This document shows, one piece after another, positions 1,127-44,301 of a DNA stretch of 64,000 bases. A program made the translations under genes and the position numbers. The stretch comes from a virus (lineage: Duplodnaviria; Heunggongvirae; Uroviricota; Caudoviricetes): positions 34,057 to 98,056 of the IMG/VR virus record IMGVR_UViG_3300023184_000047. One strand, given 5' to 3'. Positions within the stretch are counted from its first letter, which is position 1. Each line of letters opens with the position of its first letter. The notes under the pieces are model-generated. The model worked only from the letters and a program-made list of their open reading frames with translations, was not told the DNA's origin and made no database searches.

Positions 1127-1127
1127 T

Positions 1128-3145: not shown

Positions 3146-3542
3146 TATATTAGAAGAATTACAATTATTTCTTGAAGCTGAAGGAGCAGCCGACATCACA
3201 CCAGAAGATGCTGCTATAGAATCAGATATGGAAAATCCTAAAACACCTAAATTAAAATTAGATGTAAACCCAAACCCAACTAAAAAAGGTATTAAAGTAC
3301 AATTTATATTACCTAGAGGGTATTCTACAAACCAAAAAGAAGATTTAACTCAAAAATTAAAAACTAAATTAAATGCTGGATTAGCTCCTCATATGTTAAG
3401 TGTAGATGTTGATTTAGATGTTCCTTATGAAAATGTAATTGGATTTTTAATTAGACTAAGCAATATCAAAATGCTAGTTAAATCTGCTCTAGAAGGCGGA
3501 ACAACATCTCCAAATACAGGAGAAAACATACCTCAAGTATAA
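3132..3542 (+). CDS. hypothetical protein
   Basis: ORF co-oriented with neighbours; overlapping start typical of operon packing. Confidence 0.4.
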   Translation: MKPVSILEELQLFLEAEGAADITPEDAAIESDMENPKTPKLKLDVNPNPTKKGIKVQFILPRGYSTNQKEDLTQKLKTKLNAGLAPHMLSVDVDLDVPYENVIGFLIRLSNIKMLVKSALEGGTTSPNTGENIPQV

Positions 3543-3558
3543 TATAAATAAATCAGTT

Positions 3559-3987
3559 ATGGAAGAACAAGACCCACTCAAAAACCTCCAGGCCCAGATG
3601 AAAAAATTAATTGGGACTGAGAGTACTGTTAAGCGTCGTAAAAAAACTAAAGAAGAGGCACAACATGAGATGTTTTTAACTACTATATCGTTATTAGAAC
3701 ATATCCTCAATCGAGGTATAATGTTAGAAAGCGATTATGGTTTTAATACTATTAAATATGATGAACCTTTTTACCAAATTATTGATAGCTTAATATACCT
3801 GCACTTTGATGAAGATGCAGCTGATTTAATCATGTTTTATCTGTATGAGCGAATAAATCCTGATGGAACGCTAAATCCTATTATTGATATAACAGGAGCG
3901 GAAGTTTCTTTGGAGGACGCAGAAGACCTTTGGATATTGGTACAACAAATAACAGAAGAAAACAAAAAACCTGATGCCAGCAGCTAA
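3559..3987 (+). CDS. hypothetical protein
   Basis: ORF, co-oriented, tight spacing. Confidence 0.4.
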   Translation: MEEQDPLKNLQAQMKKLIGTESTVKRRKKTKEEAQHEMFLTTISLLEHILNRGIMLESDYGFNTIKYDEPFYQIIDSLIYLHFDEDAADLIMFYLYERINPDGTLNPIIDITGAEVSLEDAEDLWILVQQITEENKKPDASS

Positions 3988-4630
3988 ACCATTAAGCAAA
4001 GAGGATATATTGCGAGCAATGCGATTTACAAAATCAAATCGTGCGGCCGCCCGTTATTTAGGAGTATCTTACCAACATTATAAACCTTGGGCTAAACAAT
4101 ATAAAATAAATGATGGGGATATAGATACTCCAACATTGTTTGATATTCATAAAAACCAATCAGGTAAAGGTATTCCTAAATTTCTTCCTAATAAACGAAA
4201 AGATCCTAATGTTAAGGGAATAGTTGAAACAGGAACAGGGTGGGAATCGTTTACACCTGAAAAAATTAAATCAAGACTAATAGCCGAGGCATATTTAAAA
4301 GATGAATGTTATCAATGCGGGTTTAATGAACGTAGAGTAACAGATTATAAAACTCCATTATTACTTCATTTTAAAGATGGGAATAAATGTAATTATCTAT
4401 TAGAAAATTTAGATCTTCAATGTTATAATTGCTATTTTCTATATGTAGCAGATCCCTTAACACCAGATCAAGTTAGACATATTGAAGATAACACCGAAGT
4501 AAAAGCAGTAGCTTATGAATGGGATTTAACTCCTGAACAAATAGTTGCTATAAAAGAATCAGGTTTATGGGATGAAGACGATGATGATGAAGATGAGCCC
4601 GGATCTGAATTTATATCTTATATAAAGTAA
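3974..4630 (+). CDS. hypothetical protein with Cys-rich motif and poly-acidic C-terminal tail
   Basis: CYQCGF...CNYL...CYNCYF cysteine cluster. C-terminus DEDDDDEDEPGSEF. Confidence 0.4.
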   Translation: MPAAKPLSKEDILRAMRFTKSNRAAARYLGVSYQHYKPWAKQYKINDGDIDTPTLFDIHKNQSGKGIPKFLPNKRKDPNVKGIVETGTGWESFTPEKIKSRLIAEAYLKDECYQCGFNERRVTDYKTPLLLHFKDGNKCNYLLENLDLQCYNCYFLYVADPLTPDQVRHIEDNTEVKAVAYEWDLTPEQIVAIKESGLWDEDDDDEDEPGSEFISYIK

Positions 4631-6235: not shown

Positions 6236-6329
6236 GGAGGATTAAGCCGAAAGATTCTGGGTACCGGCAGCGCACTTGAAATGCGTCGATCATTAAAATG
6301 GTGTATGGGTTCGAATCCTATATCCTCCG
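6236..6329 (+). tRNA. tRNA-Ser(TGA), type II
   Basis: Acceptor ggaggat/atcctcc perfect. Anticodon stem gcgca/tgcgt with loop cTTGAaa. Long variable arm. T-arm atggg-TTCGAAT-cctat. Confidence 0.65.
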
Positions 6330-6335
6330 CAACAT

Positions 6336-6407
6336 TGGCTTATAGTGTAATGGTTAGCACAAAACACTTTGACTGTTTTAGTCTAGGTTCGAGTCCTAGT
6401 AAGCCAA
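6336..6407 (+). tRNA. tRNA-Gln(TTG)
   Basis: Acceptor tggctta/taagcca. D-stem gtgt/gcac. Anticodon stem aaaca/tgttt with loop cTTTGac. T-arm ctagg-TTCGAGT-cctag. Confidence 0.75.
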
Positions 6408-6416
6408 CTTTAATTT

Positions 6417-6490
6417 CTAGTAGCGAAGCCCGGTTTCATGCCTCACTTGGACTGAGGAGTACGTAGGTTCGAATCCTGCCTATTAGACCA
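6417..6490 (+). tRNA. tRNA-Pro(TGG), CCA encoded
   Basis: Anticodon stem cctca/tgagg with loop cTTGGac. T-arm gtagg-TTCGAAT-cctgc. Acceptor ctagtag/ctattag, then A and CCA. D-arm irregular. Confidence 0.5.
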
Positions 6491-6548
6491 CCACAAATAG
6501 AGCCGACGGCCGTGTAAAGGTGCCGCCTATCGTGAATTTCGGCAATAT

Positions 6549-6621
6549 TCCCTTGAAGCTCATGTGGACGGGCACTCCGCTTTTAACGGAGGGGTAGATG
6601 GTTCGAGGCCATCCGGGGGAA
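6549..6621 (+). tRNA. tRNA-Lys(TTT)
   Basis: Acceptor tcccttg/cggggga (two G.U). D-stem gctc/gggc. Anticodon stem ctccg/cggag with loop cTTTTaa. T-arm gatgg-TTCGAGG-ccatc. Confidence 0.7.
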
Positions 6622-6680
6622 CAAACACAGTTTACTTCGGCAACGTTCTGTATGGTGCACATAAAAATCGGAGCCGACCA

Positions 6681-6751
6681 GCCTCGATGGCGTAATGGAA
6701 GCGTATTTGTTTTACATGCAAATGGCAGTGGTTCGATTCCACTTCGAGGTA
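6681..6751 (+). tRNA. tRNA-Val(TAC)
   Basis: Acceptor gcctcga/tcgaggt. Anticodon stem tttgt/gcaaa with loop tTTACat. T-arm agtgg-TTCGATT-ccact. Confidence 0.7.
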
Positions 6752-6759
6752 CAAAAATT

Positions 6760-6840
6760 GGGTAGCAAAAGTCGTTCGGATACGGCAGCCAGACTGTAAA
6801 TTTGGTCCTCACGGGAGTGGTTCGAGTCCACTGCTGCCCA
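6760..6840 (+). tRNA. tRNA-Tyr(GTA), long variable arm
   Basis: Acceptor gggtagc/gctgccc. Anticodon stem ccaga/tttgg with loop cTGTAaa. Variable stem-loop tcc-tcacg-gga. T-arm agtgg-TTCGAGT-ccact. Confidence 0.6.
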
Positions 6841-6943
6841 CAAAGTGTTGACTTCAGGTTCCCAGTAGGGAAGTACACTTAAATAAAACAAGCACGGGGA
6901 AAGTGTCGACTTAAGAAACGGCAAGTACCAACGAAGGGAGTAC

Positions 6944-7016
6944 GGGTCTTTTGTATAGCTGGTGCGTACGCTAGTCTGAAGAACTAGAGGAGCAGGTTCG
7001 ATTCCTGTAGGACCCA
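6944..7016 (+). tRNA. tRNA-Phe(GAA)
   Basis: Acceptor gggtctt/aggaccc. Anticodon stem ctagt/actag with loop cTGAAga. T-arm gcagg-TTCGATT-cctgt. Confidence 0.75.
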
Positions 7017-7029
7017 CTGTATTAACCTT

Positions 7030-7101
7030 GGACTTGTAGCTCAGAGGAAGAGCGTTTGCCTGTTAAGCAAAGGGTCGGGATTTCGAAATTCCCCAAGTCC
7101 G
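7030..7101 (+). tRNA. tRNA-Asn(GTT)
   Basis: Acceptor ggacttg/caagtcc perfect. D-arm tagctcagaggaagagc. Anticodon loop cTGTTaa. Confidence 0.75.
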
Positions 7102-7110
7102 CAATAAATT

Positions 7111-7182
7111 GCTCCTATAGTAGAATGGTTAGCACACATCTCTGATAAGGATGAAATGGAGGTTCAATTCCTTCTAGGAGTA
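7111..7182 (+). tRNA. tRNA-Ile(GAT)
   Basis: Acceptor gctccta/taggagt. Anticodon stem catct/ggatg with loop cTGATaa. T-arm ggagg-TTCAATT-ccttc. Confidence 0.65.
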
Positions 7183-7240
7183 CAAAGTAGAATAAGCTAG
7201 TGTTGGGCCTACAGGAATGATATCTTCCACAACACTCTTT

Positions 7241-7327
7241 GGAGAATAGTCTAATATTGGTTCGTAGTGGCATCCTGCTAAGATGTTCCTGGTAAAACAG
7301 GTGAGAGTTCGATTCTCTTGTTCTCCG
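7241..7327 (+). tRNA. tRNA-Ser(GCT), type II
   Basis: Acceptor ggagaat/gttctcc. Anticodon stem gcatc/gatgt with loop cTGCTaa. Variable arm cctg-gtaaaa-cagg. T-arm gagag-TTCGATT-ctctt. Length 87 nt. Confidence 0.7.
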
Positions 7328-7463
7328 CAAAAAAACCTCCTCACCGTCCTCACAACGCATCTAAGGAATGCAGGAGATGAAAGTACGAACGGGGCACTAG
7401 TGGTAGGACACTTGATCAAAAAATCTATAGTACAACGATAGGGTAAGAGGTTCCCTATCAACT

Positions 7464-7532
7464 ACCGAGTGAGCTTGGGATCAAGGATGGCTCATATCCG
7501 CCCTTAGGTTGGTTCGAATCCAACACTCGGTA
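7464..7532 (+). tRNA. tRNA-Met(CAT) copy 1 (Met, fMet or Ile-lysidine type)
   Basis: Acceptor accgagt/actcggt perfect. Anticodon loop cTCATat. T-arm gttgg-TTCGAAT-ccaac. Compressed D-arm, 69 nt. Confidence 0.5.
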
Positions 7533-7603
7533 CAAAATTAGAAAATGAAGATTAAACCAAACTCATGCCGGATGAGCTTCTTATTGGTTGTCTAATTTTA
7601 CAT

Positions 7604-7677
7604 GGTGATTGTAGCTGAATTGGTAAAGCGTCTGATTGTGGTTCAGGAGATTGTGGGTTCGAGTCCCATCTTTCACA
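7604..7677 (+). tRNA. tRNA-His(GTG) with extra 5' G(-1)
   Basis: Anticodon stem tctga/tcagg with loop tTGTGgt. T-arm gtggg-TTCGAGT-cccat. A G precedes the acceptor, as in His tRNAs. Acceptor gtgattg/ctttcac has two T.T mismatches. Confidence 0.5.
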
Positions 7678-7684
7678 CAAACAC

Positions 7685-7763
7685 ATCCCTGTGGTGAAAT
7701 GGTAAACACGTTTGGTTTAAGCCCAAATGCCTAGGCTTGCTGGTTCGACTCCAGTCAGGGATA
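7685..7763 (+). tRNA. tRNA-Leu(TAA), type II
   Basis: Acceptor atccctg/cagggat perfect. Anticodon stem tttgg/ccaaa with loop tTTAAgc. Variable arm about 11 nt. T-arm gctgg-TTCGACT-ccagt. Confidence 0.7.
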
Positions 7764-7768
7764 CAATT

Positions 7769-7840
7769 GGTCTTATAGTTTAATTGGAAAAACTTATCGC
7801 TACGAACGATAGAACAAAGGTTCGATCCCTTTTAAGACCT
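7769..7840 (+). tRNA. tRNA-Arg(ACG)
   Basis: Acceptor ggtctta/taagacc perfect. D-stem gttt/aaac. Anticodon stem tatcg/cgata with loop cTACGaa. T-arm aaagg-TTCGATC-ccttt. Confidence 0.8.
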
Positions 7841-7845
7841 CAACT

Positions 7846-7917
7846 GCCCTATTAGTTAAACGGATATAACAAATCTCTTCTAAAGATTAATTCTAGGTTC
7901 GATTCCTGGATGGGGTA
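7846..7917 (+). tRNA. tRNA-Arg(TCT)
   Basis: Acceptor gccctat/atggggt. D-stem gtta/taac. Anticodon stem aatct/agatt with loop cTTCTaa. T-arm ctagg-TTCGATT-cctgg. Confidence 0.75.
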
Positions 7918-8015
7918 CAAAAAAATCGTATACCAAAGTTTCCCGTTTAGGATGCAGCTTTAGAGTATTAAGGTGAATAGGCCATTCACAGTAGGTTTAG
8001 CGATATCCTGCAAAT

Positions 8016-8086
8016 GCGTCAGTGGTGCAATGGTAGCATACCGGTCTCCAAAACCGACGATGAGGGTTCGACTCCCTCCTGGCGTG
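8016..8086 (+). tRNA. tRNA-Trp(CCA)
   Basis: Acceptor gcgtcag/ctggcgt. D-stem gtgc/gcat. Anticodon loop cTCCAaa. T-arm gaggg-TTCGACT-ccctc. Confidence 0.65.
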
Positions 8087-8338
8087 CTAAATTATTAATT
8101 ATGAAAAAGAAATTCGATATGCATTAAGTTTATTAACTTAAAATGCATAAAAATGAGAATCAAAAACTATACCAACAAAGAGTATAAGTTAGAAAAAAGA
8201 AAAGAGTATTCAGAATGGGATACCTGGTTTGAAGACTATTGGAGTAAAAAATCCAATATATGGGCCTTCAAGTATAGAGAATACCGTACCTGGAAGTACA
8301 ACAGAAAAACACAATACAAACCTTTAAAATAAGTTATC

Positions 8339-8845
8339 ATGAGTAAGTACCAAAAAACACTGGTAATCGATTCAAGCTTTATGGCAAGAAGCATTATCTC
8401 TACCGAAAGAGCTTTCGTGATTTCGTATAAGGGCAATGCAGAAATAATAGCTGAACACCCAGAAACATTTGGATTAGTAAATCCTAATCTAGAAATTTTT
8501 AAACCTTCAATCATTAGGGTTTACAAATACGTAAAACAAAACATTCAAAAAGTTCCTCTAACAAGAGAAAATGTTTATCGAAGAGATAATTACGAATGTG
8601 TTTATTGTGGATCAAGCCACTTGAAGTCACTAACACTTGATCATGTCATTCCACAATCAAAAGGTGGACAAAATGCTTGGGATAATTTAGTAACAGCATG
8701 TAGAAGATGTAATCATGAAAAAGCAGATTTAACTCTTGAGGAATATGGTAAAGAAATAGTAGAACCAAAAAGACCTCACTATTTTATGCTTATGAAGCAG
8801 TTAACACACATTCCAGTAGAATGGGAAAAGTTTTTACTTTTTTAG
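8339..8845 (+). CDS. HNH homing endonuclease inserted in the tRNA array
   Basis: CVYCGSSHLKSLTLDHVIPQSKGGQNAWDNLVTACRRCNHEK is the canonical HNH/ββα-Me motif with a Cys4 zinc site. A 59-aa ORF sits just upstream (8152..8331). Confidence 0.8.
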   Translation: MSKYQKTLVIDSSFMARSIISTERAFVISYKGNAEIIAEHPETFGLVNPNLEIFKPSIIRVYKYVKQNIQKVPLTRENVYRRDNYECVYCGSSHLKSLTLDHVIPQSKGGQNAWDNLVTACRRCNHEKADLTLEEYGKEIVEPKRPHYFMLMKQLTHIPVEWEKFLLF

Positions 8846-8873
8846 TAAAAAAGTTTGGATATTAAAAAATAAG

Positions 8874-8893
8874 TTCGTATATTTAAGTATAAT
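8874..8893 (+). promoter_or_regulatory. class-A promoter-like motif (second tRNA sub-cluster)
   Basis: aagTTCGTATATTTAAGTATAATtaaag. Confidence 0.45.
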
Positions 8894-9062
8894 TAAAGAG
8901 ATACAAAAATCGGAATTGACCGAGGCATGTGATTAACAGTATTGTACTGACTCGCTTAAGCCCTAAGAGCACTTTAATTTTAAATATAAATCATCTACTA
9001 CATAACACGGCGCCAAATTAATTGTGACATGTACTGTCTGGAAGGTCAGGCTAGGTGAATAG

Positions 9063-9132
9063 GGGCAGGATGGTTATGGAGACCGGCGGGATTGCAAACT
9101 CCGCAGAGTAAGTTCGATTCTTACCTTGCCCT
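9063..9132 (+). tRNA. tRNA-Cys(GCA)-like
   Basis: Acceptor gggcagg/cttgccc. T-arm gtaag-TTCGATT-cttac perfect. Anticodon loop tTGCAaa on a 4-bp stem. D-arm weak. Confidence 0.45.
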
Positions 9133-9227
9133 CTTTTAAGGTTCGACCCTCTACCAAATGTGTTACACCCACAGATGGATACCGAGAGGGAGCTACCGAC
9201 TGATAAGTGACCGCACATGCGGTAAAT

Positions 9228-9340
9228 GGCAAGGTGGCGGAATGGTAAACGCACTGAATAGTTAAACAGAGTGGATAAGTCGCATTATAGTTGAAATACA
9301 CATAAGACCCACGTGCAGGTTCAATTCCTGTCCTTGGCCA
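9228..9340 (+). pseudogene. aberrant 113-nt tRNA-like gene (tRNA with about 40-nt insertion, or pseudo-tRNA)
   Basis: Clean 5' half ggcaagg-tg-gcgg-aatggtaaa-cgc. T-arm gcagg-TTCAATT-cctgt. Acceptor partner ccttggc (6 of 7 paired). No canonical 5-7-5 anticodon arm in the 62 nt between them. Confidence 0.3.
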
Positions 9341-9352
9341 CAAAAATAAATT

Positions 9353-9426
9353 GCTCCGGTGCTGGAACTGGTATACAGGGCGGTCTTAGAAACCGTTTAT
9401 TGAGGGTTCGAATCCCTCCTGGAGTA
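9353..9426 (+). tRNA. tRNA-Leu(TAG) with short variable arm (atypical for Leu)
   Basis: Acceptor gctccgg/ctggagt. Anticodon stem gcggt/accgt with loop cTTAGaa. Variable region only 5 nt. T-arm gaggg-TTCGAAT-ccctc. Confidence 0.55.
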
Positions 9427-9431
9427 CAAAA

Positions 9432-9498
9432 TTACAGTTAGCTTATAGTAAAGCAGCAGGGGCTAACCTGCAGAACGGATACGAAAACCGGCTGTAAT
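9432..9498 (+). tRNA. tRNA-like with CUA (amber-reading) anticodon and degenerate T-arm; possible suppressor or pseudo-tRNA
   Basis: Acceptor ttacagt/gctgtaa (6 bp plus one G.U). D-stem gctt/aagc perfect. Anticodon stem gcagg/cctgc perfect with loop ggCTAac. T-region cgg-atacgaaaa-ccg is non-canonical. Length 67 nt. Confidence 0.35.
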
Positions 9499-9503
9499 TA
9501 AAT

Positions 9504-9576
9504 GCTTCCTTAGCTCAATTGGCAGAGCACTTGTTTTGTAAACAAGAGGTTATCGGATCGTGGCCGGTAGGAAGCT
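9504..9576 (+). tRNA. tRNA-Thr(TGT) with non-canonical T-loop
   Basis: Acceptor gcttcct/aggaagc perfect. D-stem gctc/gagc perfect. Anticodon stem cttgt/acaag perfect with loop tTTGTaa. T-arm atcgg-ATCGTGG-ccggt lacks TTC. Confidence 0.65.
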
Positions 9577-9627
9577 CAAATGGTCTGAGGGAGTCCTTTA
9601 AGGAATAAATAGCCTGTCCCTCTCTAT

Positions 9628-9701
9628 GCAATTATAGTGTTCAACGGCTAGCACGTGGGCCTTCCAAGTCTGAAGTTTCGGTTCGAATCCGAATAATTGC
9701 T
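9628..9701 (+). tRNA. tRNA-Gly(TCC)
   Basis: Acceptor gcaatta/taattgc perfect. D-stem gtgt/gcac. Anticodon loop cTTCCaa (stem with three G.U). T-arm ttcgg-TTCGAAT-ccgaa perfect. Confidence 0.7.
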
Positions 9702-9752
9702 CAAGGGTGTGTGGGAACCCAAGAATATGTGATGAACATATACCCACAATCT

Positions 9753-9824
9753 GCTGCGTTAGTGAAGGGGTTAACACGTATCACTTTCTATGATAAGGCA
9801 CGGGTTCGAATCCCGTACGCAGTA
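9753..9824 (+). tRNA. tRNA-Glu(TTC)
   Basis: Acceptor gctgcgt/acgcagt. Anticodon stem tatca/tgata with loop cTTTCta. T-arm acggg-TTCGAAT-cccgt. Confidence 0.75.
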
Positions 9825-9830
9825 CAATAA

Positions 9831-9902
9831 GGGGCTATAGTGAAATTGGCATCACGATAGATTTGCATTCTGTTATTCCGGGTTCGAATCCCGGTAGCTC
9901 CA
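9831..9902 (+). tRNA. tRNA-Ala(TGC)
   Basis: Acceptor ggggcta/tagctcc (G3.U70 present). D-stem gtga/tcac. Anticodon loop tTTGCat. T-arm ccggg-TTCGAAT-cccgg. Confidence 0.75.
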
Positions 9903-10010
9903 CAAAATTAGGAAGTAAAGACTGAGCAGGACACCGTAAAATGATTCGCAACATTAGAGCTGTTTCTTTTTTTAATATGTGAAAGCGAGATATTAAAACC
10001 TAATTTTTTT

Positions 10011-10082
10011 GGTCTATTCGTTCAACGGCTAGGATACTACCCTGTCACGGTAGGGATGAGAGTTCGATTCTCTCATAGACCG
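10011..10082 (+). tRNA. tRNA-Asp(GTC)
   Basis: Acceptor ggtctat/atagacc perfect. Anticodon stem ctacc/ggtag with loop cTGTCac. T-arm gagag-TTCGATT-ctctc. Confidence 0.75.
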
Positions 10083-10091
10083 CTAATAAAT

Positions 10092-10164
10092 TGCGTTAAA
10101 GTGTAAAGGTTGCATCCTGGTCTCATAAGCCAGGGGGGTGGTTCGAGTCCACGTTACGCTACCA
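10092..10164 (+). tRNA. tRNA-Met(CAT) copy 2, CCA encoded, unpaired 1:72
   Basis: Anticodon stem ctggt/gccag with loop cTCATaa. T-arm ggtgg-TTCGAGT-ccacg. 3' end ...ttacgct-A-CCA. Position 1 (T) does not pair with position 72 (T). Confidence 0.5.
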
Positions 10165-10236
10165 GGCCTTGTAGCTCAAAGGAGGAGCAGTTCGCTCATA
10201 ACGAAAAGGTTGGGATATCATAATTCCCCAAGGCCA
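10165..10236 (+). tRNA. tRNA-Met/Ile(CAT) copy 3 with non-canonical T-loop
   Basis: Acceptor ggccttg/caaggcc perfect. D-stem gctc/gagc. Anticodon loop cTCATaa. T-region ggga-TATCATAAT-tccc lacks TTC. Directly abuts the previous tRNA. Confidence 0.55.
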
Positions 10237-21621: not shown

Positions 21622-22056
21622 ATGAAAAAAAGAATATACTTAGACGATATAAGAACACCTGTATCACCAAACAATGAATGGGTGGAAGGAATACCAGATT
21701 GGACTGTTGTTCGTTCTTATGATGAGTTTGTAGCCAAAGTAACTGAGATTGGACTAGAAAATATTGAATTAATATCATTAGATCACGACTTAGGACCTTC
21801 AGCAATGGCTGAATGGCATTCAAACGTATATCATAATTATGAACTGAATTATGATAATATTCAGGAAAAAACTGGAATGGATTGTACTAAATGGTTAGTT
21901 GAACAATGGCTGGATGGAGCTCCTGTTGTTGATGTTGTAATACATTCTGCAAATGCAGTTGGTAGTGCAAACATGATGGGGTACATAAACAACTACAGAC
22001 ACATTCATAGATTACCTCAGAATTGTGTAAGAGTACAAATAGAACATACAGTATAG
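21622..22056 (+). CDS. hypothetical protein
   Basis: ORF, co-oriented. Confidence 0.4.
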   Translation: MKKRIYLDDIRTPVSPNNEWVEGIPDWTVVRSYDEFVAKVTEIGLENIELISLDHDLGPSAMAEWHSNVYHNYELNYDNIQEKTGMDCTKWLVEQWLDGAPVVDVVIHSANAVGSANMMGYINNYRHIHRLPQNCVRVQIEHTV

Positions 22057-28395: not shown

Positions 28396-28465
28396 AGCCA
28401 ATTGGTGTACTGGCGTACGCACCCGATCGTAAGGGCAAGGGTTGGTTCGATTCCAACATTGGCTT
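28396..28465 (+). tRNA. orphan tRNA-like gene with irregular anticodon arm
   Basis: Acceptor agccaat/attggct perfect. D-stem gtgt/acgc. T-arm gttgg-TTCGATT-ccaac perfect. Anticodon region ccc-gatcgtaa-ggg gives a 3-bp stem with an 8-nt loop; identity unclear (CGT or TCG). Confidence 0.4.
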
Positions 28466-28484
28466 CAAATAAAAACAATAAGTT

Positions 28485-29081
28485 ATGGCATTTATAAGAA
28501 AAGCAGCATTTAATTATGTAGAGTTAAAAGGGTTGCAACGTTATGTAAAAGATACTAAAGGCTTTATAGCTGGAGGGTGTTTTAAAGATCTATTTCAAGG
28601 TAAAAAAACTCGAGATGTTGATGTGTTCTTTGAAAACGAAGAAGATTATAACAACGCTGTAGAACTTTACAAAACTAAATCTAACTTCAAAGAGATATAT
28701 TCGAATGATAACTGTACTGGGTATAGGGATATTAAACGAAATATAGGAGTTGAACTAATCAAATCCATATTTGGAACCCCAGAAACAGTAATATCTCAAT
28801 TTGATTTTACAATAGTAAAAGCTGCCTATTTCAACCCACCGTCGGAAGAACAAGATATTCAATTCATATACCATTCTGATTTCTTTGAGCATTTAATGCT
28901 TAAGCGACTTGTTATAGATGATGGTATGCCTAAAGCTGTAGCAACATTAAATAGAACGTGGAAGTATGCTAAGTATGGGTTTGGGTTATGTAGAGAAAGT
29001 AAAATTAAATTAACCAATGAGGTTATAGAAAAAGGTGTAGTTGAAGATATTAATGGAGATTTATACTTTGGGTTTGATTAA
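28485..29081 (+). CDS. hypothetical protein
   Basis: 198-aa ORF. Confidence 0.45.
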   Translation: MAFIRKAAFNYVELKGLQRYVKDTKGFIAGGCFKDLFQGKKTRDVDVFFENEEDYNNAVELYKTKSNFKEIYSNDNCTGYRDIKRNIGVELIKSIFGTPETVISQFDFTIVKAAYFNPPSEEQDIQFIYHSDFFEHLMLKRLVIDDGMPKAVATLNRTWKYAKYGFGLCRESKIKLTNEVIEKGVVEDINGDLYFGFD

Positions 29082-30163: not shown

Positions 30164-30367
30164 ATGGAAAAATTAGGATTAGTATTAGGAGCATTTGGGT
30201 TAATATTATTGACAGCAATAATTATGGCTTGGCCAACACAACTACTTTGGAACTACTCACTTGTAGGAGCTGTAAATGGAATTAATTCAATTGGATTTTG
30301 GCAAGCATTAGGAATTAATTTCTTGTTTGGAATATTATTTAAAAATTCAAGTTCAAATAGTAAGTAA
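30164..30367 (+). CDS. small membrane protein
   Basis: Two TM helices. Confidence 0.4.
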   Translation: MEKLGLVLGAFGLILLTAIIMAWPTQLLWNYSLVGAVNGINSIGFWQALGINFLFGILFKNSSSNSK

Positions 30368-32437: not shown

Positions 32438-32457
32438 AAATAAAATATTTGATTGAA

Positions 32458-32482
32458 GGCTTGCTAACGCGAGCCTTTTTTC
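32458..32482 (+). terminator. rho-independent terminator
   Basis: ggcttgc-taac-gcgagcc hairpin plus T6. Confidence 0.55.
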
Positions 32483-32505: not shown

Positions 32506-32709
32506 ATGGCAGGATTATTTGATATGATGGATGATGCTATCGCACACGAATTAGGAGTTGATCTTTATACTTACATTAAGATAATAGATCATAAATGTAC
32601 TGACGAAGAAGCAAACTTTATTATTCTAACTATTATGGAGGAAGATGTTGATAATTTAGAAAAAGCAAAACAAATTTTTAATAAGTATTTAGATGAACAA
32701 CCTAGATAA
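32506..32709 (+). CDS. hypothetical small acidic protein
   Basis: Start set at MAGLFDMMDD. Stop overlaps the thyA start. Confidence 0.35.
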   Translation: MAGLFDMMDDAIAHELGVDLYTYIKIIDHKCTDEEANFIILTIMEEDVDNLEKAKQIFNKYLDEQPR

Positions 32710-33766
32710 ACAATACACAGACCTTCTTCAAGACATTCTTGACAACGGAACCCCTAAATCTGACCGTACTGGAACTGGTACAATCTCAGTATTCGGAAGA
32801 CAAATACGTCACAATATGAAAGATGGTTTTCCTTTACTTACAACTAAGAAAATGCCATTTAAAACAATCGTAACAGAACTACTTTGGTTCTTACGAGGTG
32901 ATACCAACATTAAGTATTTAGTTGATAATAATTGTCATATTTGGGATGGTGATGCTTATAAGAATTATGTAAATAAAACAAATGAAGATATTTTTAAATC
33001 TGATATAACCCTACCACCTTCTTATTATCCAATAGATAAAGATAAATTCATTAACAAAATCAAAACAGATGATGAGTTTGCTAAGAAGTGGGGTGAGTTA
33101 GGTCCAATTTATGGTAAGCAATGGAGAAAATGGGATATAAAACCTACTATAAATTCAGAAACAGGTGAATTCTTACTTGGGAATATGTGGGTAGACCAAA
33201 TCCAAAACCTAATCAACGACCTTAAAACAAATCCAGACTCAAGACGATTGATGGTAAATGCTTGGAATGTTGGAGAATTAGACCAAATGGTTCTTCCACC
33301 TTGTCATTATGGATTTCAAGTTTATACAAGAGAGTTGAGCGTAGTAGAACGTATGGAATATTATGGTAAACATTATATGAAAGATAACCAGGCAAAATCG
33401 TATGATGAATTACTTAAAGTTGATTACGACAAGTTAAACATTCCAACCAGAGCAATCTCTTTAATGTGGAATCAACGTTCAGTAGATACATTTTTGGGTT
33501 TACCATTCAACATTGCTTCTTATGGATTATTACTAATGATGTTAGCTGATGAAGTTAATATGGTTCCTGACCAATTGATTGGTAGCTTAGGAGATGTTCA
33601 TTTATATTCAAATCATATTGAACAAGCCAAAGAGCAAATCGAAAGAGAAGGATTTGATTTACCAAAAGTTCATGTTAGGGATGGAATGTATTGTTCCTCA
33701 ATACAAGATATCTTACTACTGGATTATCAATCACATCCAGCAATTAAAGCACCATTAAGTAATTAA
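32693..33766 (+). CDS. thyA: thymidylate synthase (ThyA) with about 40-aa internal insertion
   Basis: DRTGTGTISVFG, FPLLTTKK and LLWFLRGDTN motifs. Catalytic LPPCHYGFQVY. SVDTFLGLPFNIASYGLLLMMLA. An extra segment VVERMEYYGKHYMKDNQAKSYDELLKVDYDKLNIPTRAI lies between the conserved blocks. Confidence 0.85.
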   Translation: MNNLDKQYTDLLQDILDNGTPKSDRTGTGTISVFGRQIRHNMKDGFPLLTTKKMPFKTIVTELLWFLRGDTNIKYLVDNNCHIWDGDAYKNYVNKTNEDIFKSDITLPPSYYPIDKDKFINKIKTDDEFAKKWGELGPIYGKQWRKWDIKPTINSETGEFLLGNMWVDQIQNLINDLKTNPDSRRLMVNAWNVGELDQMVLPPCHYGFQVYTRELSVVERMEYYGKHYMKDNQAKSYDELLKVDYDKLNIPTRAISLMWNQRSVDTFLGLPFNIASYGLLLMMLADEVNMVPDQLIGSLGDVHLYSNHIEQAKEQIEREGFDLPKVHVRDGMYCSSIQDILLLDYQSHPAIKAPLSN

Positions 33767-34883: not shown

Positions 34884-35121
34884 AATATAAATAAAGCATA
34901 CCATACACAACACCAATACAAACATACGTATATATGAGAAAGTTATATTACAAACTAGTTCAATTCATAGGTTATACAATTGAAATTATTGATACCATAG
35001 ATTCTACAACGTGGGAGACTACTAAACGGACTCACATTGTGGTATACAAGTATTATGGTAGGTTTAAACACGATAATAGTGTTAAAATGAGAATGATTTG
35101 GAAATATAAAATAAGATAGAT

Positions 35122-35499
35122 ATGAAAATAGCAGTAATAGCACATGATGGTAAGAAAGCAGATATGGTAGCTTTCATAATGAAAAGACTAGATTTCTTTA
35201 GTAGGGTAGAAATAATTGCTACAGGTACTACAGGAAAACATATTGAACATGCCGGACTAAAAGTACAATGCTTAAAGTCAGGACCATTAGGAGGTGATGC
35301 ACAAATTGCCTCTATGATAGCAGATGGAGAGGTTAATGGTGTTATATTCTTCATTGACCCTTTAGATGTTCTACCACACCAAGTAGATGTAAATATGTTA
35401 CTTAGAATTTGTAATGTATATAACACTCCATTAGCAACCAATTACAAGACAGCAATATATGTCATAAATGGATTAGAAACTAAATTGAATAAAAAATGA
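35122..35499 (+). CDS. mgsA: methylglyoxal synthase-like protein
   Basis: AVIAHDGKK...ATGTTGKHI...SGPLGGDAQIASMI...VIFFIDPLDVLPHQVDV...NTPLATN aligns block-for-block with E. coli MgsA (ALVAHD.K, ATGTTG, SGPMGGDQQ, FFWDPL..PHDPDV, NIPVATN). Length 125 aa. Confidence 0.75.
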   Translation: MKIAVIAHDGKKADMVAFIMKRLDFFSRVEIIATGTTGKHIEHAGLKVQCLKSGPLGGDAQIASMIADGEVNGVIFFIDPLDVLPHQVDVNMLLRICNVYNTPLATNYKTAIYVINGLETKLNKK

Positions 35500-35729
35500 C
35501 AGTAGCACAATTAATAGAAGCTCTAAGTAAGATAGAAGACCAAGAGGCATGGGTAATGGTAAAAGGGTATGAAGGAGGATATGATGATGTAATGACTATA
35601 AATCCAACACCTATAGAGATAGCCTTAGATGTAAATAAAGAATGGTACTTTGGTAACCATGAAAGAGCAGAAATGTTGATATATGACGACAGGAAAGACT
35701 ATCAAATAGTAAAAGCAATTATACTTTAG
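35496..35729 (+). CDS. hypothetical protein
   Basis: ORF. Confidence 0.35.
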   Translation: MTVAQLIEALSKIEDQEAWVMVKGYEGGYDDVMTINPTPIEIALDVNKEWYFGNHERAEMLIYDDRKDYQIVKAIIL

Positions 35730-36294: not shown

Positions 36295-37080
36295 GGTTTT
36301 TTTGTAAGCAACCAACATTATTAAATGTTTTTTTGTTTAACGCATTGTTTTTTTTTGTTGCACAACACCATGTATAATTGGAGTTCATTGAAATTATCGC
36401 GTATTTTTGCGCAATAAACGCGGTTTTTTTTGTTGCTCAAGCAAAGTAGTAACGGTTGTAGAACAAGACGCAAGTATATTAAACGGTATGTGTAGTATTG
36501 TTTTTTTTGTAGCAAATACGCTATAGTATGTGACATGATGTGAGGTAATGGGTATTGTCGTTTGTTGTGTAGGGGAAAAGATCCGCCCCGCCCCGTCCCG
36601 TCTCCTTGAAAACCTAAACGTATATACAACAAAACATAACGTTACGATAGAGCTTCTCGATGGTTGGTATGCGTTTTTGTTATGATTTGACTCCTTTCAC
36701 CCGCGGAAGTCTTGTTTTTGTTGCGTTTCGATAGAGCTTCTCGATGGTTATTGATTTTTTCGATAGAGAAATTTGGTTACTGCAACTTTTTTTTGTACAT
36801 TATAAAAACTTAAAAAATATTTTATGCCTATTATCGTACTGTTTCCCGTTTATGGATTGCTTTTTGGAATACATTATGTCTCACCCGACATAGATGAAAA
36901 TTTTGATGTTGACGACGACGTCCATATGCTTCAAGTCGCACTGGGGTTTTTTGGTTTATCCATTATGTGGTAATTGTTTTTTTTGTTCATAACTTTTTTT
37001 GTTAAAAATTTGGTTACGTTATTTTTGTGTCGTAATTTTATAGCAGAGTTAAAAAATAATTAATTAACATTAAATTTAAA
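36295..37080. promoter_or_regulatory. about 0.8-kb repeat-rich non-coding region (candidate replication origin or regulatory hub)
   Basis: At least 12 copies of G/C-TTTTTTT(T)GT-NNC. Direct repeats of TTCGATAGAGCTTCTCGATGGTT at 36636 and 36727, with a partial third at 36758. GC box CCGCCCCGCCCCGTCCCGTCTCC at about 36583. Only a 49-aa ORF (36824..36973). Ends with a class-B motif. Confidence 0.4.
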
Positions 37081-37084
37081 GGTT

Positions 37085-37433: not shown

Positions 37434-37463
37434 GACCCGACAGAAATGTCGGGTCTTTTTTTT
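37434..37463 (+). terminator. rho-independent terminator
   Basis: gacccgaca-gaaa-tgtcgggtc (9 bp) plus T9. Confidence 0.75.
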
Positions 37464-38011: not shown

Positions 38012-38034
38012 AAAGCGCTTTGGCGCTTTTTTTG
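38012..38034 (+). terminator. rho-independent terminator (conserved AAAGCGCTTyGGCGCTTTTTTTG)
   Basis: agcgc-tttg-gcgct plus T7. Same sequence recurs at 38292 and 39228. Confidence 0.7.
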
Positions 38035-38291: not shown

Positions 38292-38340
38292 AAAGCGCTT
38301 CGGCGCTTTTTTTGTCCCAACGTGGTTGGGACTTTTTTTT
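38292..38340 (+). terminator. tandem terminators
   Basis: agcgc-ttcg-gcgct plus T7, then cccaac-gtgg-ttggg plus T9. Confidence 0.7.
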
Positions 38341-40085: not shown

Positions 40086-40155
40086 TTATGCTTTAATTTT
40101 TTAATGTTGTTTGGATCGGCTTATCAGAAATGGTAAGCCGTTTCTATTTATTACC

Positions 40156-40365
40156 ATGAGACGTAAGGCATTTATAGTGTTTTTGATCATATGGATCGCG
40201 GAGAACCTGTCTATCCCATTCTGGGTGGTTGGGCATGTCCATCTTACAATGAACATCTATGAGGACATTTATGAGCTAATTGCCTCATTTGGGATGAACA
40301 TTATAGTGGCTCTGGGATTCTGGTTGGGGTGGAAGAACCATTTAAAGGAAATAAATAACAAGTAA
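40156..40365 (+). CDS. small membrane protein
   Basis: Start set at MRRKAFIVFLIIWI. Two TM helices. Confidence 0.35.
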   Translation: MRRKAFIVFLIIWIAENLSIPFWVVGHVHLTMNIYEDIYELIASFGMNIIVALGFWLGWKNHLKEINNK

Positions 40366-40620
40366 ACTAAATAATACCATGAGTGAAAGAAGACAAGCAA
40401 TTACATTAGTGTGGAACGAATTTATCAGGACATTTATGCCTAAACTGGACAAGCTAGACACACCGGCTGAGAGGGTAGTGTGTGCTCGTCTCCTGAAAGC
40501 AGCCCTCGAAGACTATATCGAACGAAACGATAAGTAATATTTTTTTTATGTAATATATTTGGTTATATAAATTATATTTCGTAATTTTATATCAAAGTTA
40601 AACATTAAAAAACAAACATT

Positions 40621-40788
40621 ATGTCAACATTAAAATTTTCAGATGGAGAAGAATTCGATTTAAGCGGAATATTAAGAATGGAAGAACGAGCAGATGGATG
40701 GTACGTATTAGGGAACAATAGAATGATTCCCGTAGCGGATGAGGAAGATGCTTTATTAACAATTGAGAAACTAACTTCACTTAGATAG
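40621..40788 (+). CDS. hypothetical small protein (55 aa)
   Basis: Hand-read MSTLKFSDGEEFDLSGILRMEERADGWYVLGNNRMIPVADEEDALLTIEKLTSLR, preceded by a class-B motif at 40579. Confidence 0.3.
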   Translation: MSTLKFSDGEEFDLSGILRMEERADGWYVLGNNRMIPVADEEDALLTIEKLTSLR

Positions 40789-41102
40789 TTTTATTTTATT
40801 TTAACACCCTTGAGCCTCATTTTCAATTATGGATTTGAGGCTCATTTATATAAAAACATTTTATATTTGATTTGGTTTATAGATTTATTATTCGTAATTT
40901 TATATCAAAGTTAAATAACAAACCCAATTAAACCAAATATAAAAAATGAATACAATAATACAAATAATAGAGCAAGATGGTTTCTACTGGTTCGAATATA
41001 ATACCAGAACAATAACCCTAATCAGTTTCTCATTGAGCGACTTAATAAAACGTATAGTACAATTAAACCCAACGTTAAACTAACACACGTACGTTAAATA
41101 CT

Positions 41103-41400
41103 AAACAAACAACAACAACTAACATGAGGCGGCCAAAAGGTCGCCTTCATTAATTTAAACACATGTATGCGCGCGTGCGACAAAAAGAATAGCGGGAACG
41201 GGCCTGCGACAAAAACTCTGGTCGGAGTCCCGGGTCTGGAAAAAAAAGAAGGGGGGTCGATCCGCTAGCGCGGCGCGCGCGGGGCGACGGCGAAATGGCC
41301 CCACGGTAATTGCGGTCCATCGACGGCGCGCGGTTGGTGCGCCCGAAGGCCCCGTATCTACAGATAAACGACAAAACCCCGGCCCCGCGCCTCATATATA
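41103..41400. other. about 300-bp GC-rich island (roughly 65% GC) flanked by an 8-bp inverted repeat
   Basis: Intergenic. Starts cATGAGGCGgcc and ends ggccccgCGCCTCATat. Inside are GC blocks separated by A-runs (tgcgacaaaaa twice, ggaaaaaaaag). Abrupt composition switch relative to flanks. Confidence 0.5.
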
Positions 41401-41596
41401 CAAATATACCGCAAAATTATGTTTAATTTTGACTCCCACAAAATCATTATAGCCCATTTCACCACAAAATCCGAGGGAGTAAACTCCTTCTTTTTACAAA
41501 TTTCTTTTCAAAACCAAAACGTATATACGAGAACGTGGATTATAAAAAGATTATTCGTATATTCAATACGTTATTATCGTATTAAAGTATTTAAAG

Positions 41597-42079
41597 ATGA
41601 TGAAAGACAAATTTAAACGTATATCAATAGAGGAGGCTCAAGAGCACTATTATCTAAAACCAGAAGGAATATCTTGTACTATCGCTAATGCATACACGTT
41701 AATGCCTGTTGAGGAACAAGATGGTTGGGAGGAAGTTCACTATTGGATTAAGAAAATATCGTTTAATGCTAAATTAGCTATTGATGAAGGGTATATCTAT
41801 ATTTTAGAGAATAAGAATCAACCGGGTATTTGTAAAATTGGATATACGGATCGTACGCCTCAAGAGCGAGTTAGGGAAATAAATGGTGCTACAGGTGTAA
41901 TTGTTCCGTGGTATATATCGAATGCTTTTCCGTGTAAATCACCTTTAGCTATAGAGCGTTTAGTTCATAGCGCTTTAAGTGATTATTGGGTGAATAAAGA
42001 AGGGTTCGCCGTTACTTTACCTCTCGCCGAACGTACTGTACTTAGTATTATTGTTGAAAATAGCGCAGGTATAGCGTAA
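41597..42079 (+). CDS. T5orf172 / GIY-YIG-like domain protein
   Basis: YIYILENKNQPGICKIGYTDRTPQERVREINGATGV matches the T5orf172-type GIY-YIG core (vYil.n....KIGiT....Rl.eln). Confidence 0.5.
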   Translation: MMKDKFKRISIEEAQEHYYLKPEGISCTIANAYTLMPVEEQDGWEEVHYWIKKISFNAKLAIDEGYIYILENKNQPGICKIGYTDRTPQERVREINGATGVIVPWYISNAFPCKSPLAIERLVHSALSDYWVNKEGFAVTLPLAERTVLSIIVENSAGIA

Positions 42080-43280: not shown

Positions 43281-43562
43281 ATGATTACCTTTATTGTTAT
43301 ATTAATCCTCTTAGTAGGTGTATTAGGTTATACTTCCTATAATTTATTTAAAAAAGTAGAGAAACTAGAGAAAATGGTTGATGGTCAAGACCAATATATT
43401 AAACAATTTTCTGATACTGTTGATTTTACTAATAAAAGATTGGGGGAAATTGATGACAAAGGGACATTTCAATCTGATGATGAGATAGGATGGTTTTTTG
43501 AAAGTATAAAAACCCTTCAAAATGAATTAAATGACTTCAACCTTAATGGAATTAGAAAATAA
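43281..43562 (+). CDS. small membrane-anchored protein
   Basis: N-terminal TM helix ITFIVILILLVGVLGY. Confidence 0.4.
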   Translation: MITFIVILILLVGVLGYTSYNLFKKVEKLEKMVDGQDQYIKQFSDTVDFTNKRLGEIDDKGTFQSDDEIGWFFESIKTLQNELNDFNLNGIRK

Positions 43563-44301
43563 AACCCTAGTTATTGAATTAACCAAATCTGGTCAACCTC
43601 GTAAACGTAAACCTAAAACATCCAATACTTACTTTACTGAAGATACTCAGAATGCTATTATAGAATATGTAGCCTCACAGAATCAGGATTTTAGAGATAA
43701 AATATATCGTGAACGGATAGAATATGGGTTTTTTAAATTGACTCAAAATATTATTCATACGTTTAAATTTTATTATACTGATGGTGAATCTGTAGAAGAT
43801 GTACAACAGGAAGTAATTGCTTTTTTACTTGAAAAATTAAAATTATATAAGCCTGAGAAAGGTAAAGCGTATTCGTATTTTGGAACTATAGCTAAACGTT
43901 ATTTAATTCTTAAGAATAAGAAAAATTATCAAAAGCTTCAAGACAAAGGTGATTTGATTGAGGTAGATGAGGATAAAACTATTAGAGAAGAAATCATAAA
44001 TGATTATTACGGTAAAGATTATAGCGTAAGTGAGTTTATGAGTTTGTATATCAAATATGTTGATAAGAATTTGAGTAAATTGTTCCCTAAAGACATTGAT
44101 GCTCAAACAGCAAACGCTATTGTTGAATTGTTTCGTAAGTGTGAGTCGTTAGATATATTTAATAAGAAGGCACTTTACATATATATTCGTGAGATAGTTG
44201 ATGTTGATACACCTCAAATTACTAAAATTATTAAGAAACTAAAAATCACGTACGTTGAATTATATAATCAATATTATTCTAGTGGATATATACGGGTATA
44301 A
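43531..44301 (+). CDS. hypothetical protein, possible sigma-factor-like late transcription regulator
   Basis: Segment QQEVIAFLLEKLKLYKPEKGKAYSYFGTIAKRYLI is weakly reminiscent of sigma region 2. Lies immediately upstream of the structural module. Confidence 0.25.
   Translation: MTSTLMELENKTLVIELTKSGQPRKRKPKTSNTYFTEDTQNAIIEYVASQNQDFRDKIYRERIEYGFFKLTQNIIHTFKFYYTDGESVEDVQQEVIAFLLEKLKLYKPEKGKAYSYFGTIAKRYLILKNKKNYQKLQDKGDLIEVDEDKTIREEIINDYYGKDYSVSEFMSLYIKYVDKNLSKLFPKDIDAQTANAIVELFRKCESLDIFNKKALYIYIREIVDVDTPQITKIIKKLKITYVELYNQYYSSGYIRV

Follow-up and report, generated by a model that had tools for sequence, protein, structure and literature searches.

The mgsA gene and its phage setting

The DNA analysed here, referred to below as the window, is a stretch of 64,000 nucleotides (nt; positions 34,057 to 98,056) of the IMG/VR virus record IMGVR_UViG_3300023184_000047 (Caudoviricetes), and the gene under study, mgsA, is a predicted methylglyoxal synthase (MGS) gene. 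A preliminary description, made from the sequence alone, had reported a 125-amino-acid (aa) homologue of this enzyme at positions 35122-35499, and an ATG-to-TGA open reading frame (ORF) of 125 aa lies exactly there on the + strand, its stop codon overlapping the start of the next ORF (ATGA). The product passes the family cut-offs: the Pfam MGS search that had been proposed as a check was positive (PF02142, E = 5e-14, 52.5 bits versus a threshold of 24.1), as were the NCBIfam equivalogs NF003559 (158.1 bits, cut-off 84) and, marginally, TIGR00160 (147.1 bits, cut-off 146.9). Furthermore, 11 distinct MGS sequences in the PDB match the protein with E-values of 5e-33 to 2e-24. The motifs pointed out earlier were all found, i.e. 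HD (aa 8-9), ATGTTG (aa 33-38), SGPLGGD (aa 53-59) and FFIDPL (aa 76-81), and Pfam detected a single domain with no second one. The GC content of mgsA (0.328; 0.19 at third codon positions, GC3) is matched by the means of the window ORFs (0.322 and 0.216, respectively).

The window belongs to a large phage, and mgsA, being flanked by viral genes, qualifies by the usual criteria as an auxiliary metabolic gene (AMG). The overall GC content is 32% and nearly all of the 92 ORFs of at least 70 aa are on the + strand. Upstream of mgsA lie an array of 22 tRNA genes covering most amino acids (ARAGORN, 6249-10083), a gene for a PHA02142-type RNA ligase and the thymidylate synthase gene thyA, and downstream are genes for a gp25-like baseplate protein, a baseplate wedge protein and a DNA primase. 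The region also codes for a GDP-mannose 4,6-dehydratase with glycosyltransferases, and for cREC_REC, Gad2, DUF932 and metallophosphatase proteins. The closest cultured relative is the 160-kb Flavobacterium myophage immuto (42-45% aa identity for baseplate and primase proteins), followed by Microcystis phage Mel-JY01 and an uncultured 484-kb phage; MgsA was not found in any of these three by tblastn of INPHARED. With a 12-kb query, similarity to immuto at the DNA level (megablast) was confined to thyA (86-87%), making thyA a second stretch that is either highly conserved or exchanged. Independent contigs from other samples, one of which is 100 kb long, encode an identical MgsA protein with the same order of genes around it, so that the locus is not an assembly chimera; taken together with the matching GC and GC3 values, this also excludes a very recent capture.

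Table 1. Coordinates of mgsA, of its active-site motifs and of neighbouring features in the window
Feature	Position	Strand	Basis
mgsA, short-form methylglyoxal synthase (EC 4.2.3.3 by homology)	35122-35499	+	ORF; Pfam, NCBIfam and PDB matches; AlphaFold2 model
H8-D9 (E. coli His19-Asp20), active site; Asp20 also in allosteric relay	35143-35148	+	1B93 alignment
ATGTTG motif, T34/T36/T37 (Thr45/47/48), phosphoryl binding	35218-35235	+	Alignment
SGPLGGD motif, S53/G54 (Ser65/Gly66) and D59 (Asp71; nt 35296-35298)	35278-35298	+	Alignment
FFIDPL...PHQVD, active-site strand and loop with D79, P80, H86, D89 and the clade pair I78/Q87	35347-35388	+	Alignment
Putative start boundary of block upstream of thyA: terminator-like hairpin, 10-bp stem then T-run	32455-32478	+	Hairpin scan
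thyA, thymidylate synthase (357 aa), first gene of the putative block containing mgsA	32693-33766	+	Pfam PF00303, E = 5e-95
61-aa ORF adjoining mgsA on its upstream side; conserved in L001 and L003	34934-35119	+	Gene clusters (cluster 77)
77-aa ORF, start overlapping mgsA stop (ATGA); no Pfam or PHROG match	35496-35729	+	Locus comparison
Terminator-like hairpin beyond the last ORF of the block (ORF end 36294)	36407-36423	+	Hairpin scan

Active-site residues, allosteric relay and fold

Residues were assigned by pairwise alignment with E. coli MgsA, the biochemical reference (1B93/1EGH/1IK4), whose sequence was verified to be identical to PDB 1B93 and which is 41% identical to the window protein over 116 residues. 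H8, D9 and K12 of the window protein correspond to E. coli H19, D20 and K23, T34, T36 and T37 to the phosphoryl-binding T45, T47 and T48, S53 and G54 to S65 and G66, D59 to the catalytic base D71, D79 and P80 to D91 and P92, H86 to H98, and D89 to D101. That is, the phosphoryl-binding set (K23, T45, T47, T48, S65 and G66) is complete, and the catalytic Asp and His positions, whose conservation had likewise been proposed as a check, lack no residue. A scan of IMG/VR confirmed 164 viral stretches coding for an MgsA relative, of which 80, with proteins 62-99% identical to window MgsA, were kept for comparison. Wherever these viral copies (n = 80) cover them, all of the E. coli residues listed above are unchanged, as they are in the window. 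The H8-D9 pair is kept in 79 of 79 viral copies covering the site (the 80th being incomplete) as well as in 80 of 80 cellular copies, and S53, G54 and D59 are invariant in 160 of 160 homologues examined. It is therefore very probable, on sequence grounds, that the window ORF encodes a catalytically competent short-form MGS, which would convert dihydroxyacetone phosphate (DHAP) into methylglyoxal and inorganic phosphate (Pi).

The predicted fold is in line with this assignment. An AlphaFold2 monomer model built from 20 clade members (mean predicted local distance difference test score, pLDDT, 86; predicted template-modelling score, pTM, 0.81) has stand-alone MGS enzymes as its top 26 PDB matches (TM-scores 0.76-0.81). 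Like the solved short-form enzymes of Thermus thermophilus (1WO8), Thermus sp. GH5 (2X8W/2XW6), Bacillus subtilis (6F2C) and Borrelia burgdorferi (8U2V), the window protein consists of a single MGS domain of about 125-135 aa; it is 47-50% identical to them with a TM-score of about 0.8 (1WO8, 6F2C and 8U2V for the model), has identical catalytic and phosphoryl-binding residues, and shares the lack of an Arg150 helix. It differs from them in being phage-encoded and in carrying Ile for the Arg of FFRDPL and PHQVDV for PHEPDV, changes that are limited to the crown viral clade described below. The MGS-like domains of carbamoyl-phosphate synthetase (CPS; allosteric domain) and PurH (IMP cyclohydrolase domain) share the PF02142 superfamily fold, but were found by the fold search only at E-values of about 1e-4 to 1e-2 and 14-20% identity, and, unlike them, the window protein has the MGS catalytic constellation. 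A domain of the CPS/PurH type was therefore rejected, given the 125-aa stand-alone ORF, the presence of the catalytic residues and E-values of 2e-4 or worse. The enzyme had been described earlier as stand-alone, and both its sequence and its fold are matched best by single-domain methylglyoxal synthases.

Like the active-site set, the second allosteric relay proposed for E. coli MGS, P92/R107/V111 (PMC4133812), is conserved, reading P80/R95/V99 in the window protein, which suggests that responsiveness to Pi has plausibly been kept. The C-terminal Arg150 helix, in contrast, is absent, as window MgsA ends about 15 residues before the E. coli end, and the inter-subunit salt bridge between Asp20 and Arg150 cannot form. 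This tail is behind the strong Pi cooperativity of the E. coli enzyme, the Hill coefficient for Pi being 3.4 in E. coli MGS versus 1.5 in tail-less Thermus MGS (PMC4133812). Loss of the tail as an adaptation to phage life was considered and rejected, since cellular Bacteroidota and Thermus enzymes are equally short.

Distribution and origin of the viral copies

Searching a large protein database returned 3919 relatives of MgsA at E <= 1e-10, the best 120 of which are 78-97% identical to the window copy. Copies of about 80% identity are located on phage-like contigs of 167-270 kb, in neighbourhoods with T4-type RNA ligases, ClpP, T4_Y16D, DUF5872 and many short ORFs without a family match. In GTDB (one genome per species) the best match reaches 65% identity, as against 66-99% for viral and metagenome copies, and all top matches are from Bacteroidota-type lineages. 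PHROGs has no MgsA family, the sole match being phrog_17253 (unknown function) at E = 0.0028, and a fold search of BFVD did not find a viral MGS at E <= 0.001. Tblastn of INPHARED gave 22 matches, all of them to unannotated records, below 50% identity and outside the viral clade; mgsA was found in no annotated or clearly phage-derived record there. We rejected these matches ('Listeria phage LM', 'Bacteriophage sp.', many of a few kb) as cultured phages with MgsA, some of them probably being host DNA.

In a neighbor-joining tree of 160 homologues, the viral copies all fall into one clade, and the only sequences labelled as cellular within it are L081, L087 and L088. The crown viral clade has 92% bootstrap support, and the viral copies together with these three have 79%. 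L081, at 65% identity, is from a contig (NZWA01000013.1) of a Flavobacteriales metagenome-assembled genome (MAG) that also carries homologues of the DUF932 and T5orf172-type genes of the window; these two phage-gene homologues and the position of its MgsA inside the viral clade indicate that it is probably a misbinned phage contig, and it was excluded as a cellular reference. L087 and L088 are from uncultured Flavobacteriales, and L088, located on a 648-kb contig among genes for type IX secretion (T9SS), TonB receptors and extracytoplasmic function (ECF) sigma factors, is by this neighbourhood genuinely cellular. Among cellular relatives, the MgsA proteins of Flavobacteriales and other Bacteroidota (L087/L088, Flavobacterium glycines L142, Elizabethkingia 6PHE) come closest to the window protein (54-65% identity), and resemble it in being short-form and of low GC. 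One old capture from a Flavobacteriales-type host would be the simplest reading of the tree, with the lineage of L087/L088 as probable donor, and the large myophages carrying the clade appear to infect Flavobacteriales. Two other contigs, L132 and L145 (16 kb each), are binned to the betaproteobacterium Limnohabitans and encode a Bacteroidota-like MgsA (58-60% identity); they may be misbinned.

Viral 'mgsA' has been listed in AMG tables from Lake Baikal (PMC8066274), brine-pool viruses (bioRxiv 2024.01.25.577265) and plastisphere viromes (PMC12397222). The preliminary description was right in placing the gene in a phage, but the gene is less unusual than it implied, as the lineage is old, widespread and already present in automated tables. 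The catalogue entries share the KEGG function, and the 120-kb freshwater scaffold from Baikal is compatible with the viral clade. Unlike the present analysis, however, these papers give a one-line automated call, and two of them file mgsA under 'methane' metabolism; such 'methane' or 'propanoate' filing is uninformative on the role of the gene. No residue, phylogenetic, selection or context analysis of viral mgsA, and no experiment on it, was found in the literature searched. A canonical enzyme serving as a phage AMG is not new in mechanism, nor had it gone entirely unreported; what is new here is the monophyletic phage clade, together with the coupled residue switch, the D9N sub-lineage and the mobility between phages, the last three of which are described below.

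Purifying selection, a clade-specific residue pair and natural variants

For 715 usable pairs the median dN/dS (ratio of nonsynonymous to synonymous substitution rates) was 0.136, and between subclades dS had reached saturation. The combination of low dN/dS and saturated dS indicates that mgsA has long been functional in phages, and points to maintenance by purifying selection in a broad group of large myophages. These data also bear on whether mgsA is a mere passenger, i.e. a host fragment, an assembly chimera or a recent functionless capture. Such artefacts do seem to occur among related records, as shown by the unannotated and partly host-like INPHARED fragments and by the possibly misbinned L081. 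For the window gene, however, this explanation is hardly credible and is effectively refuted: the identical gene is present in an identical phage context on independent contigs of several samples, it has a phage-like composition with phage genes on both sides, and it belongs to a monophyletic viral clade with saturated dS and a dN/dS of 0.14.

Nine alignment columns split viral from cellular copies. Two of them are adjacent to catalytic residues: in the viral crown clade Ile or Val replaces the Arg of FF[R]DPL (E. coli position 90), and Gln or Ile the Glu or Asp that follows the catalytic His (E. coli position 99). Both changes occur together in 77 of 81 viral copies (the window and 80 loci) and in none of the cellular copies; unlike the crown clade, cellular Bacteroidota copies keep Arg with Glu or Asp at these positions and differ at about nine diagnostic columns in all. 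Arg with Asp or Glu is also kept in four viral sequences (L054, L058, L060 and L073) and in the L081/L087/L088 group. In the window protein the pair is I78 and Q87, flanking the catalytic D79 and H86, and the switch looks like an ion pair replaced by neutral residues. Model confidence is lowest in the loop concerned (mean pLDDT 58 for residues 81-90).

A second kind of variation affects the catalytic residues themselves. Among the 120 closest metagenome relatives, five distinct sequences (P0004, P0009, P0011, P0022 and P0056; 87-93% identical to the window copy) carry D9N, and single sequences carry D9V (P0023), D79Y (P0018) or G38A (P0003). The window copy retains the canonical Asp at position 9. 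In Thermus MGS the equivalent substitution, D10N, lowers kcat from 326 to 0.41 per second, i.e. about 800-fold (PMC4133812). The variant copies may be attenuated or decaying, and the singletons are possibly sequencing errors. Substitutions in such close relatives that are expected to impair catalysis severely (D9N in five distinct sequences, D9V and D79Y), together with the distinctive surface or loop changes of the crown clade, could alternatively be taken to mean that the MGS fold has been turned into a binding or regulatory protein, e.g. for sequestering DHAP or phosphate or for contacting a host regulator; B. subtilis MgsA, named as a partner of Crh, would be a model for the latter. We regard this as very unlikely, since the window and all IMG/VR copies keep every catalytic residue that they cover, which is hard to explain without selection for catalysis, and since dN/dS is low over the whole protein.

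Genomic contexts and apparent mobility of mgsA

mgsA is found in at least four genomic contexts (groups A to D). Context A is the window type, with a 77-aa ORF downstream of mgsA; in context B mgsA adjoins cREC_REC and ClpP genes; in context C it is near thyA; and in context D it lies a few genes from a T4-type major head protein gene (phrog_138, E = 9e-67) and near a head maturation protease gene (phrog_207). In six loci (L002-L007) MgsA is 91-95% identical to the window copy, whereas the products of common flanking genes are only 24-61% identical. At the DNA level, blastn of a 12-kb stretch of the window against L005 gave a match only at 35120-35502 (90% identity), and L002 matched at 35118-35729, i.e. 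mgsA and the next ORF, and additionally over 201 nt at 30164-30363. Consistently, dS between the window and L002-L007 is 0.27-0.57 for mgsA, and 1.1 to saturated for other common genes, although these values, obtained by the method of Nei and Gojobori (NG86), are rough for short AT-rich genes. An island of DNA similarity with lower dS than its neighbours suggests that, besides strong constraint, a small mgsA module has recently been exchanged between diverged phages.

The 77-aa ORF is located just downstream of mgsA in L001-L007 except L005, with one small ORF in between in L003. Its dS is similar to that of mgsA for L002, L006 and L007 (0.56-0.71) and is 1.5 for L003. We considered it as a dedicated partner or regulator of mgsA and rejected this, since it is absent from groups B to D, occurs without mgsA in L170-L172 and has no family match. 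The cREC_REC (PF20274) receiver-domain protein of the window (144 aa, 21622-22056) is 73-80% identical between phages (L008-L015 and L021) in which most neighbours are unrecognisable, and in context B its gene precedes mgsA by one or two genes.

In the window, thyA is 1.4 kb upstream of mgsA, inside the same block bounded by terminator-like hairpins. The thyA product is about 90 aa longer than the 266-position Pfam profile, which it spans end to end, implying the presence of insertions. Terminator-like hairpins are enriched between 32 and 38.5 kb (13 found versus 2.8 expected in a simple hairpin scan), and the block structure suggests that mgsA may be co-transcribed with the thymidylate synthase gene. 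A scan for sigma-70 promoters gave 13 sites versus 31 expected by chance; the consensus used was that of sigma-70, from which Bacteroidota promoters deviate. Further downstream, no + strand ORF of at least 70 aa was found in 36295-37084 and 40086-41596, each containing one short minus-strand ORF. Strong hairpins cluster between these two ORF-poor stretches (37434-37455, 38012-38029, 38292-38309 and 38314-38332), including the repeated palindrome AAAGCGC-N4-GCGCTTT at 38012 and 38292, where there is no Rfam match.

Possible role of the phage enzyme

What a phage would gain from MgsA is suggested by what is known of the bacterial enzyme. Production of methylglyoxal is thought to be important under phosphate limitation, as it releases the phosphate of DHAP (PMC11850910), the MgsA bypass being relevant under phosphate limitation or high glycolytic flux, and E. 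coli MgsA is inhibited by 0.3-0.5 mM Pi (PMC11850910; PMC4133812). We tentatively favour, as a possibility that stops short of being probable, a role as a self-limiting valve for phosphate release and sugar-phosphate relief during phage DNA synthesis. In such a scheme mgsA would be expressed in the replication phase, co-transcribed with the thymidylate synthase gene. Phage DNA synthesis would drain free phosphate, and triose phosphates would pile up behind the phosphate-requiring glyceraldehyde-3-phosphate dehydrogenase (GAPDH). MgsA would then open the methylglyoxal bypass, returning Pi to the pool, relieving sugar-phosphate stress and keeping upper glycolysis running; since Pi inhibits MgsA enzymes, the valve would be self-limiting, and methylglyoxal would be handled by host detoxification for the short remaining life of the cell. 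Enzyme activity, hexamer formation, gating by Pi, timing of expression and benefit to the phage are all presumed in this scheme. A large phage whose genome, of the order of 160 kb, is copied many times has a high need for phosphate, and in oligotrophic Lake Baikal a 120-kb viral scaffold bearing mgsA accounted for up to 8.8% of the reads of a virome sample, which places it among the most abundant scaffolds there (PMC8066274). A link to nucleotide synthesis is suggested by thyA, which shares the hairpin-bounded block with mgsA in the window; of 47 distinct viral loci, 13 have a thyA homologue no more than 10 kb from mgsA.

The logic proposed here, a host-derived gene securing phosphate for DNA synthesis in phosphorus-poor water, is like that of the phosphate-stress AMGs pstS, phoA and phoH of marine cyanophages. 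The cyanophage genes, however, act on uptake or scavenging outside the cell, whereas MgsA would recycle internal phosphate, with a toxic by-product as the price. Several observations weigh against the phosphate valve. Among the Pfam-labelled genes of the window and of the regions within 10 kb on either side in four related contigs, no Pho-regulon gene (phoH, pstS or phoA) was found, leaving no genomic link to phosphate stress, nor did this set contain a glyoxalase or another methylglyoxal-detoxifying gene, which would leave the toxic product to the host; with neither type of gene seen, genomic context does not discriminate between the models. Flavobacterium genomes have an mgsA of their own (L142 and L147), and with hosts that already carry the gene, what a phage copy would add is argued by analogy from other AMGs. 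The association with thyA is only partial, and co-transcription rests on a simple hairpin scan. Finally, the replacement of the Arg and the Glu or Asp beside the catalytic residues in the crown clade could alter regulation in either direction.

In another reading, methylglyoxal itself is what has been selected, as a metabolic weapon that would arrest host growth, translation or replication, or poison competing phages or defence proteins. The compound is strongly electrophilic and toxic (PMC11850910), a detoxification gene is beside mgsA in none of the neighbourhoods examined, and movement as a small cassette between diverged phages is often seen for accessory weapon or counter-defence genes. 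Moreover, the Arg150 relay, source of the strong Pi cooperativity of E. coli MGS, is missing, and the coupled switch from Arg with Glu or Asp to Ile/Gln, which flanks the catalytic D79 and H86, is present in 77 of 81 viral copies but absent from all cellular ones; in this reading the clade substitutions would loosen phosphate inhibition and methylglyoxal would be made regardless of Pi. We nevertheless consider a weapon not very likely. Methylglyoxal would harm phage DNA and proteins too; the missing tail is not phage-specific, Thermus and cellular Bacteroidota enzymes being equally short; the second allosteric relay is intact; and the D9N sub-lineage, given the kcat loss seen in Thermus, fits down-tuning better than maximal toxin output. 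In addition, depending on the group, mgsA lies beside nucleotide-metabolism or structural genes, and not in a recognisable immediate-early takeover module. A tunable 'metabolic toxin', into which crown-clade MgsA would have been re-engineered with electrophile output under selection, would bear as its marks the coupled loss of Arg and Glu, the cassette-like spread and the attenuating D9N sub-lineages, and could serve to shut off the host, to interfere with co-infecting phages or to inactivate host defence proteins chemically; we hold this to be unlikely. Rewiring of glycolytic overflow, relief of phosphate stress and host killing had all been suggested as possible roles in the preliminary description, and on indirect evidence we would rank phosphate relief first and host killing second.

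A phosphate-independent benefit would be a bypass of GAPDH for the sake of carbon flux, with DHAP drained to maintain glycolytic throughput and redox balance when GAPDH is limiting. Variants of this idea include oxidative stress in lit, oxic surface water, reduced synthesis of glycerol-3-phosphate and lipids, and recovery of D-lactate or pyruvate. In Salmonella the mgsA pathway is induced by peroxide and allows more glucose to be used (PMC12096831), and the phage enzyme is intact and under purifying selection. However, no glyoxalase, lactate dehydrogenase, aldo-keto reductase or other central-carbon AMG was seen near mgsA, and the mechanism overlaps with that of the phosphate valve, from which it is hard to separate; on balance we find it fairly improbable as an explanation of its own.

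Well-understood phage metabolic genes mostly boost beneficial host pathways such as photosynthesis, nucleotide synthesis and phosphate uptake. The product of MgsA, in contrast, is unavoidably a toxic electrophile, yet the gene has long been kept intact in widespread large phages, whose apparent hosts, the Flavobacteriales, are important degraders of organic matter. If the phosphate valve is true, it would be a new, internal phage route against phosphorus scarcity and would alter carbon flow in infected cells, from DHAP to methylglyoxal and D-lactate; if the toxin is true, it would be a new kind of tool for host takeover or interference. The protein is small, its chemistry is simple, and the natural variants (Ile/Gln versus Arg/Glu, and D9N) are ready-made experiments.

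Other features of the window

An Rfam scan of the window found nothing but tRNAs, adding three tRNA-like matches, at 9228-9339 (unusually long), 10092-10161 and 10165-10236, to the ARAGORN genes. Within the tRNA array (6237-10236) there is an ORF for an HNH endonuclease (8339-8845). ARAGORN also reported a tRNA-like gene at 28396-28466 with an abnormal two-base anticodon ('cg') and of undetermined type, which is not reported by Rfam. It is directly upstream of a 198-aa ORF (28485-29081) matching Gad2 (PF26128), which we take to be an anti-Gabija counter-defence protein.

At the start of the window, a sugar-nucleotide and glycosylation cluster (251-4630) comprises two GT2 glycosyltransferase genes and the GDP-mannose 4,6-dehydratase gene, and continues upstream on the parent contig (L167) with genes for an epimerase/reductase, a protein with a faint DegT-like match, a methyltransferase and a hexapeptide acetyltransferase. 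The target of such modification could be a surface glycan of the host or, on the phage side, the DNA or the virion.

A 160-aa ORF (41597-42079), situated where the small-gene region gives way to the structural module, matches T5orf172 and MUG113, presumably GIY-YIG-related domains typical of mobile homing endonucleases; homologues at 37% identity are present in L003, L004 and L081. The baseplate module is headed by the gene for a 256-aa protein (43531-44301) with a faint Sigma70_r2 match, distant homologues of which (26-34% identity) are encoded about 10 kb upstream of mgsA in group D phages. This protein may be a late sigma factor common to a broad group of phages.

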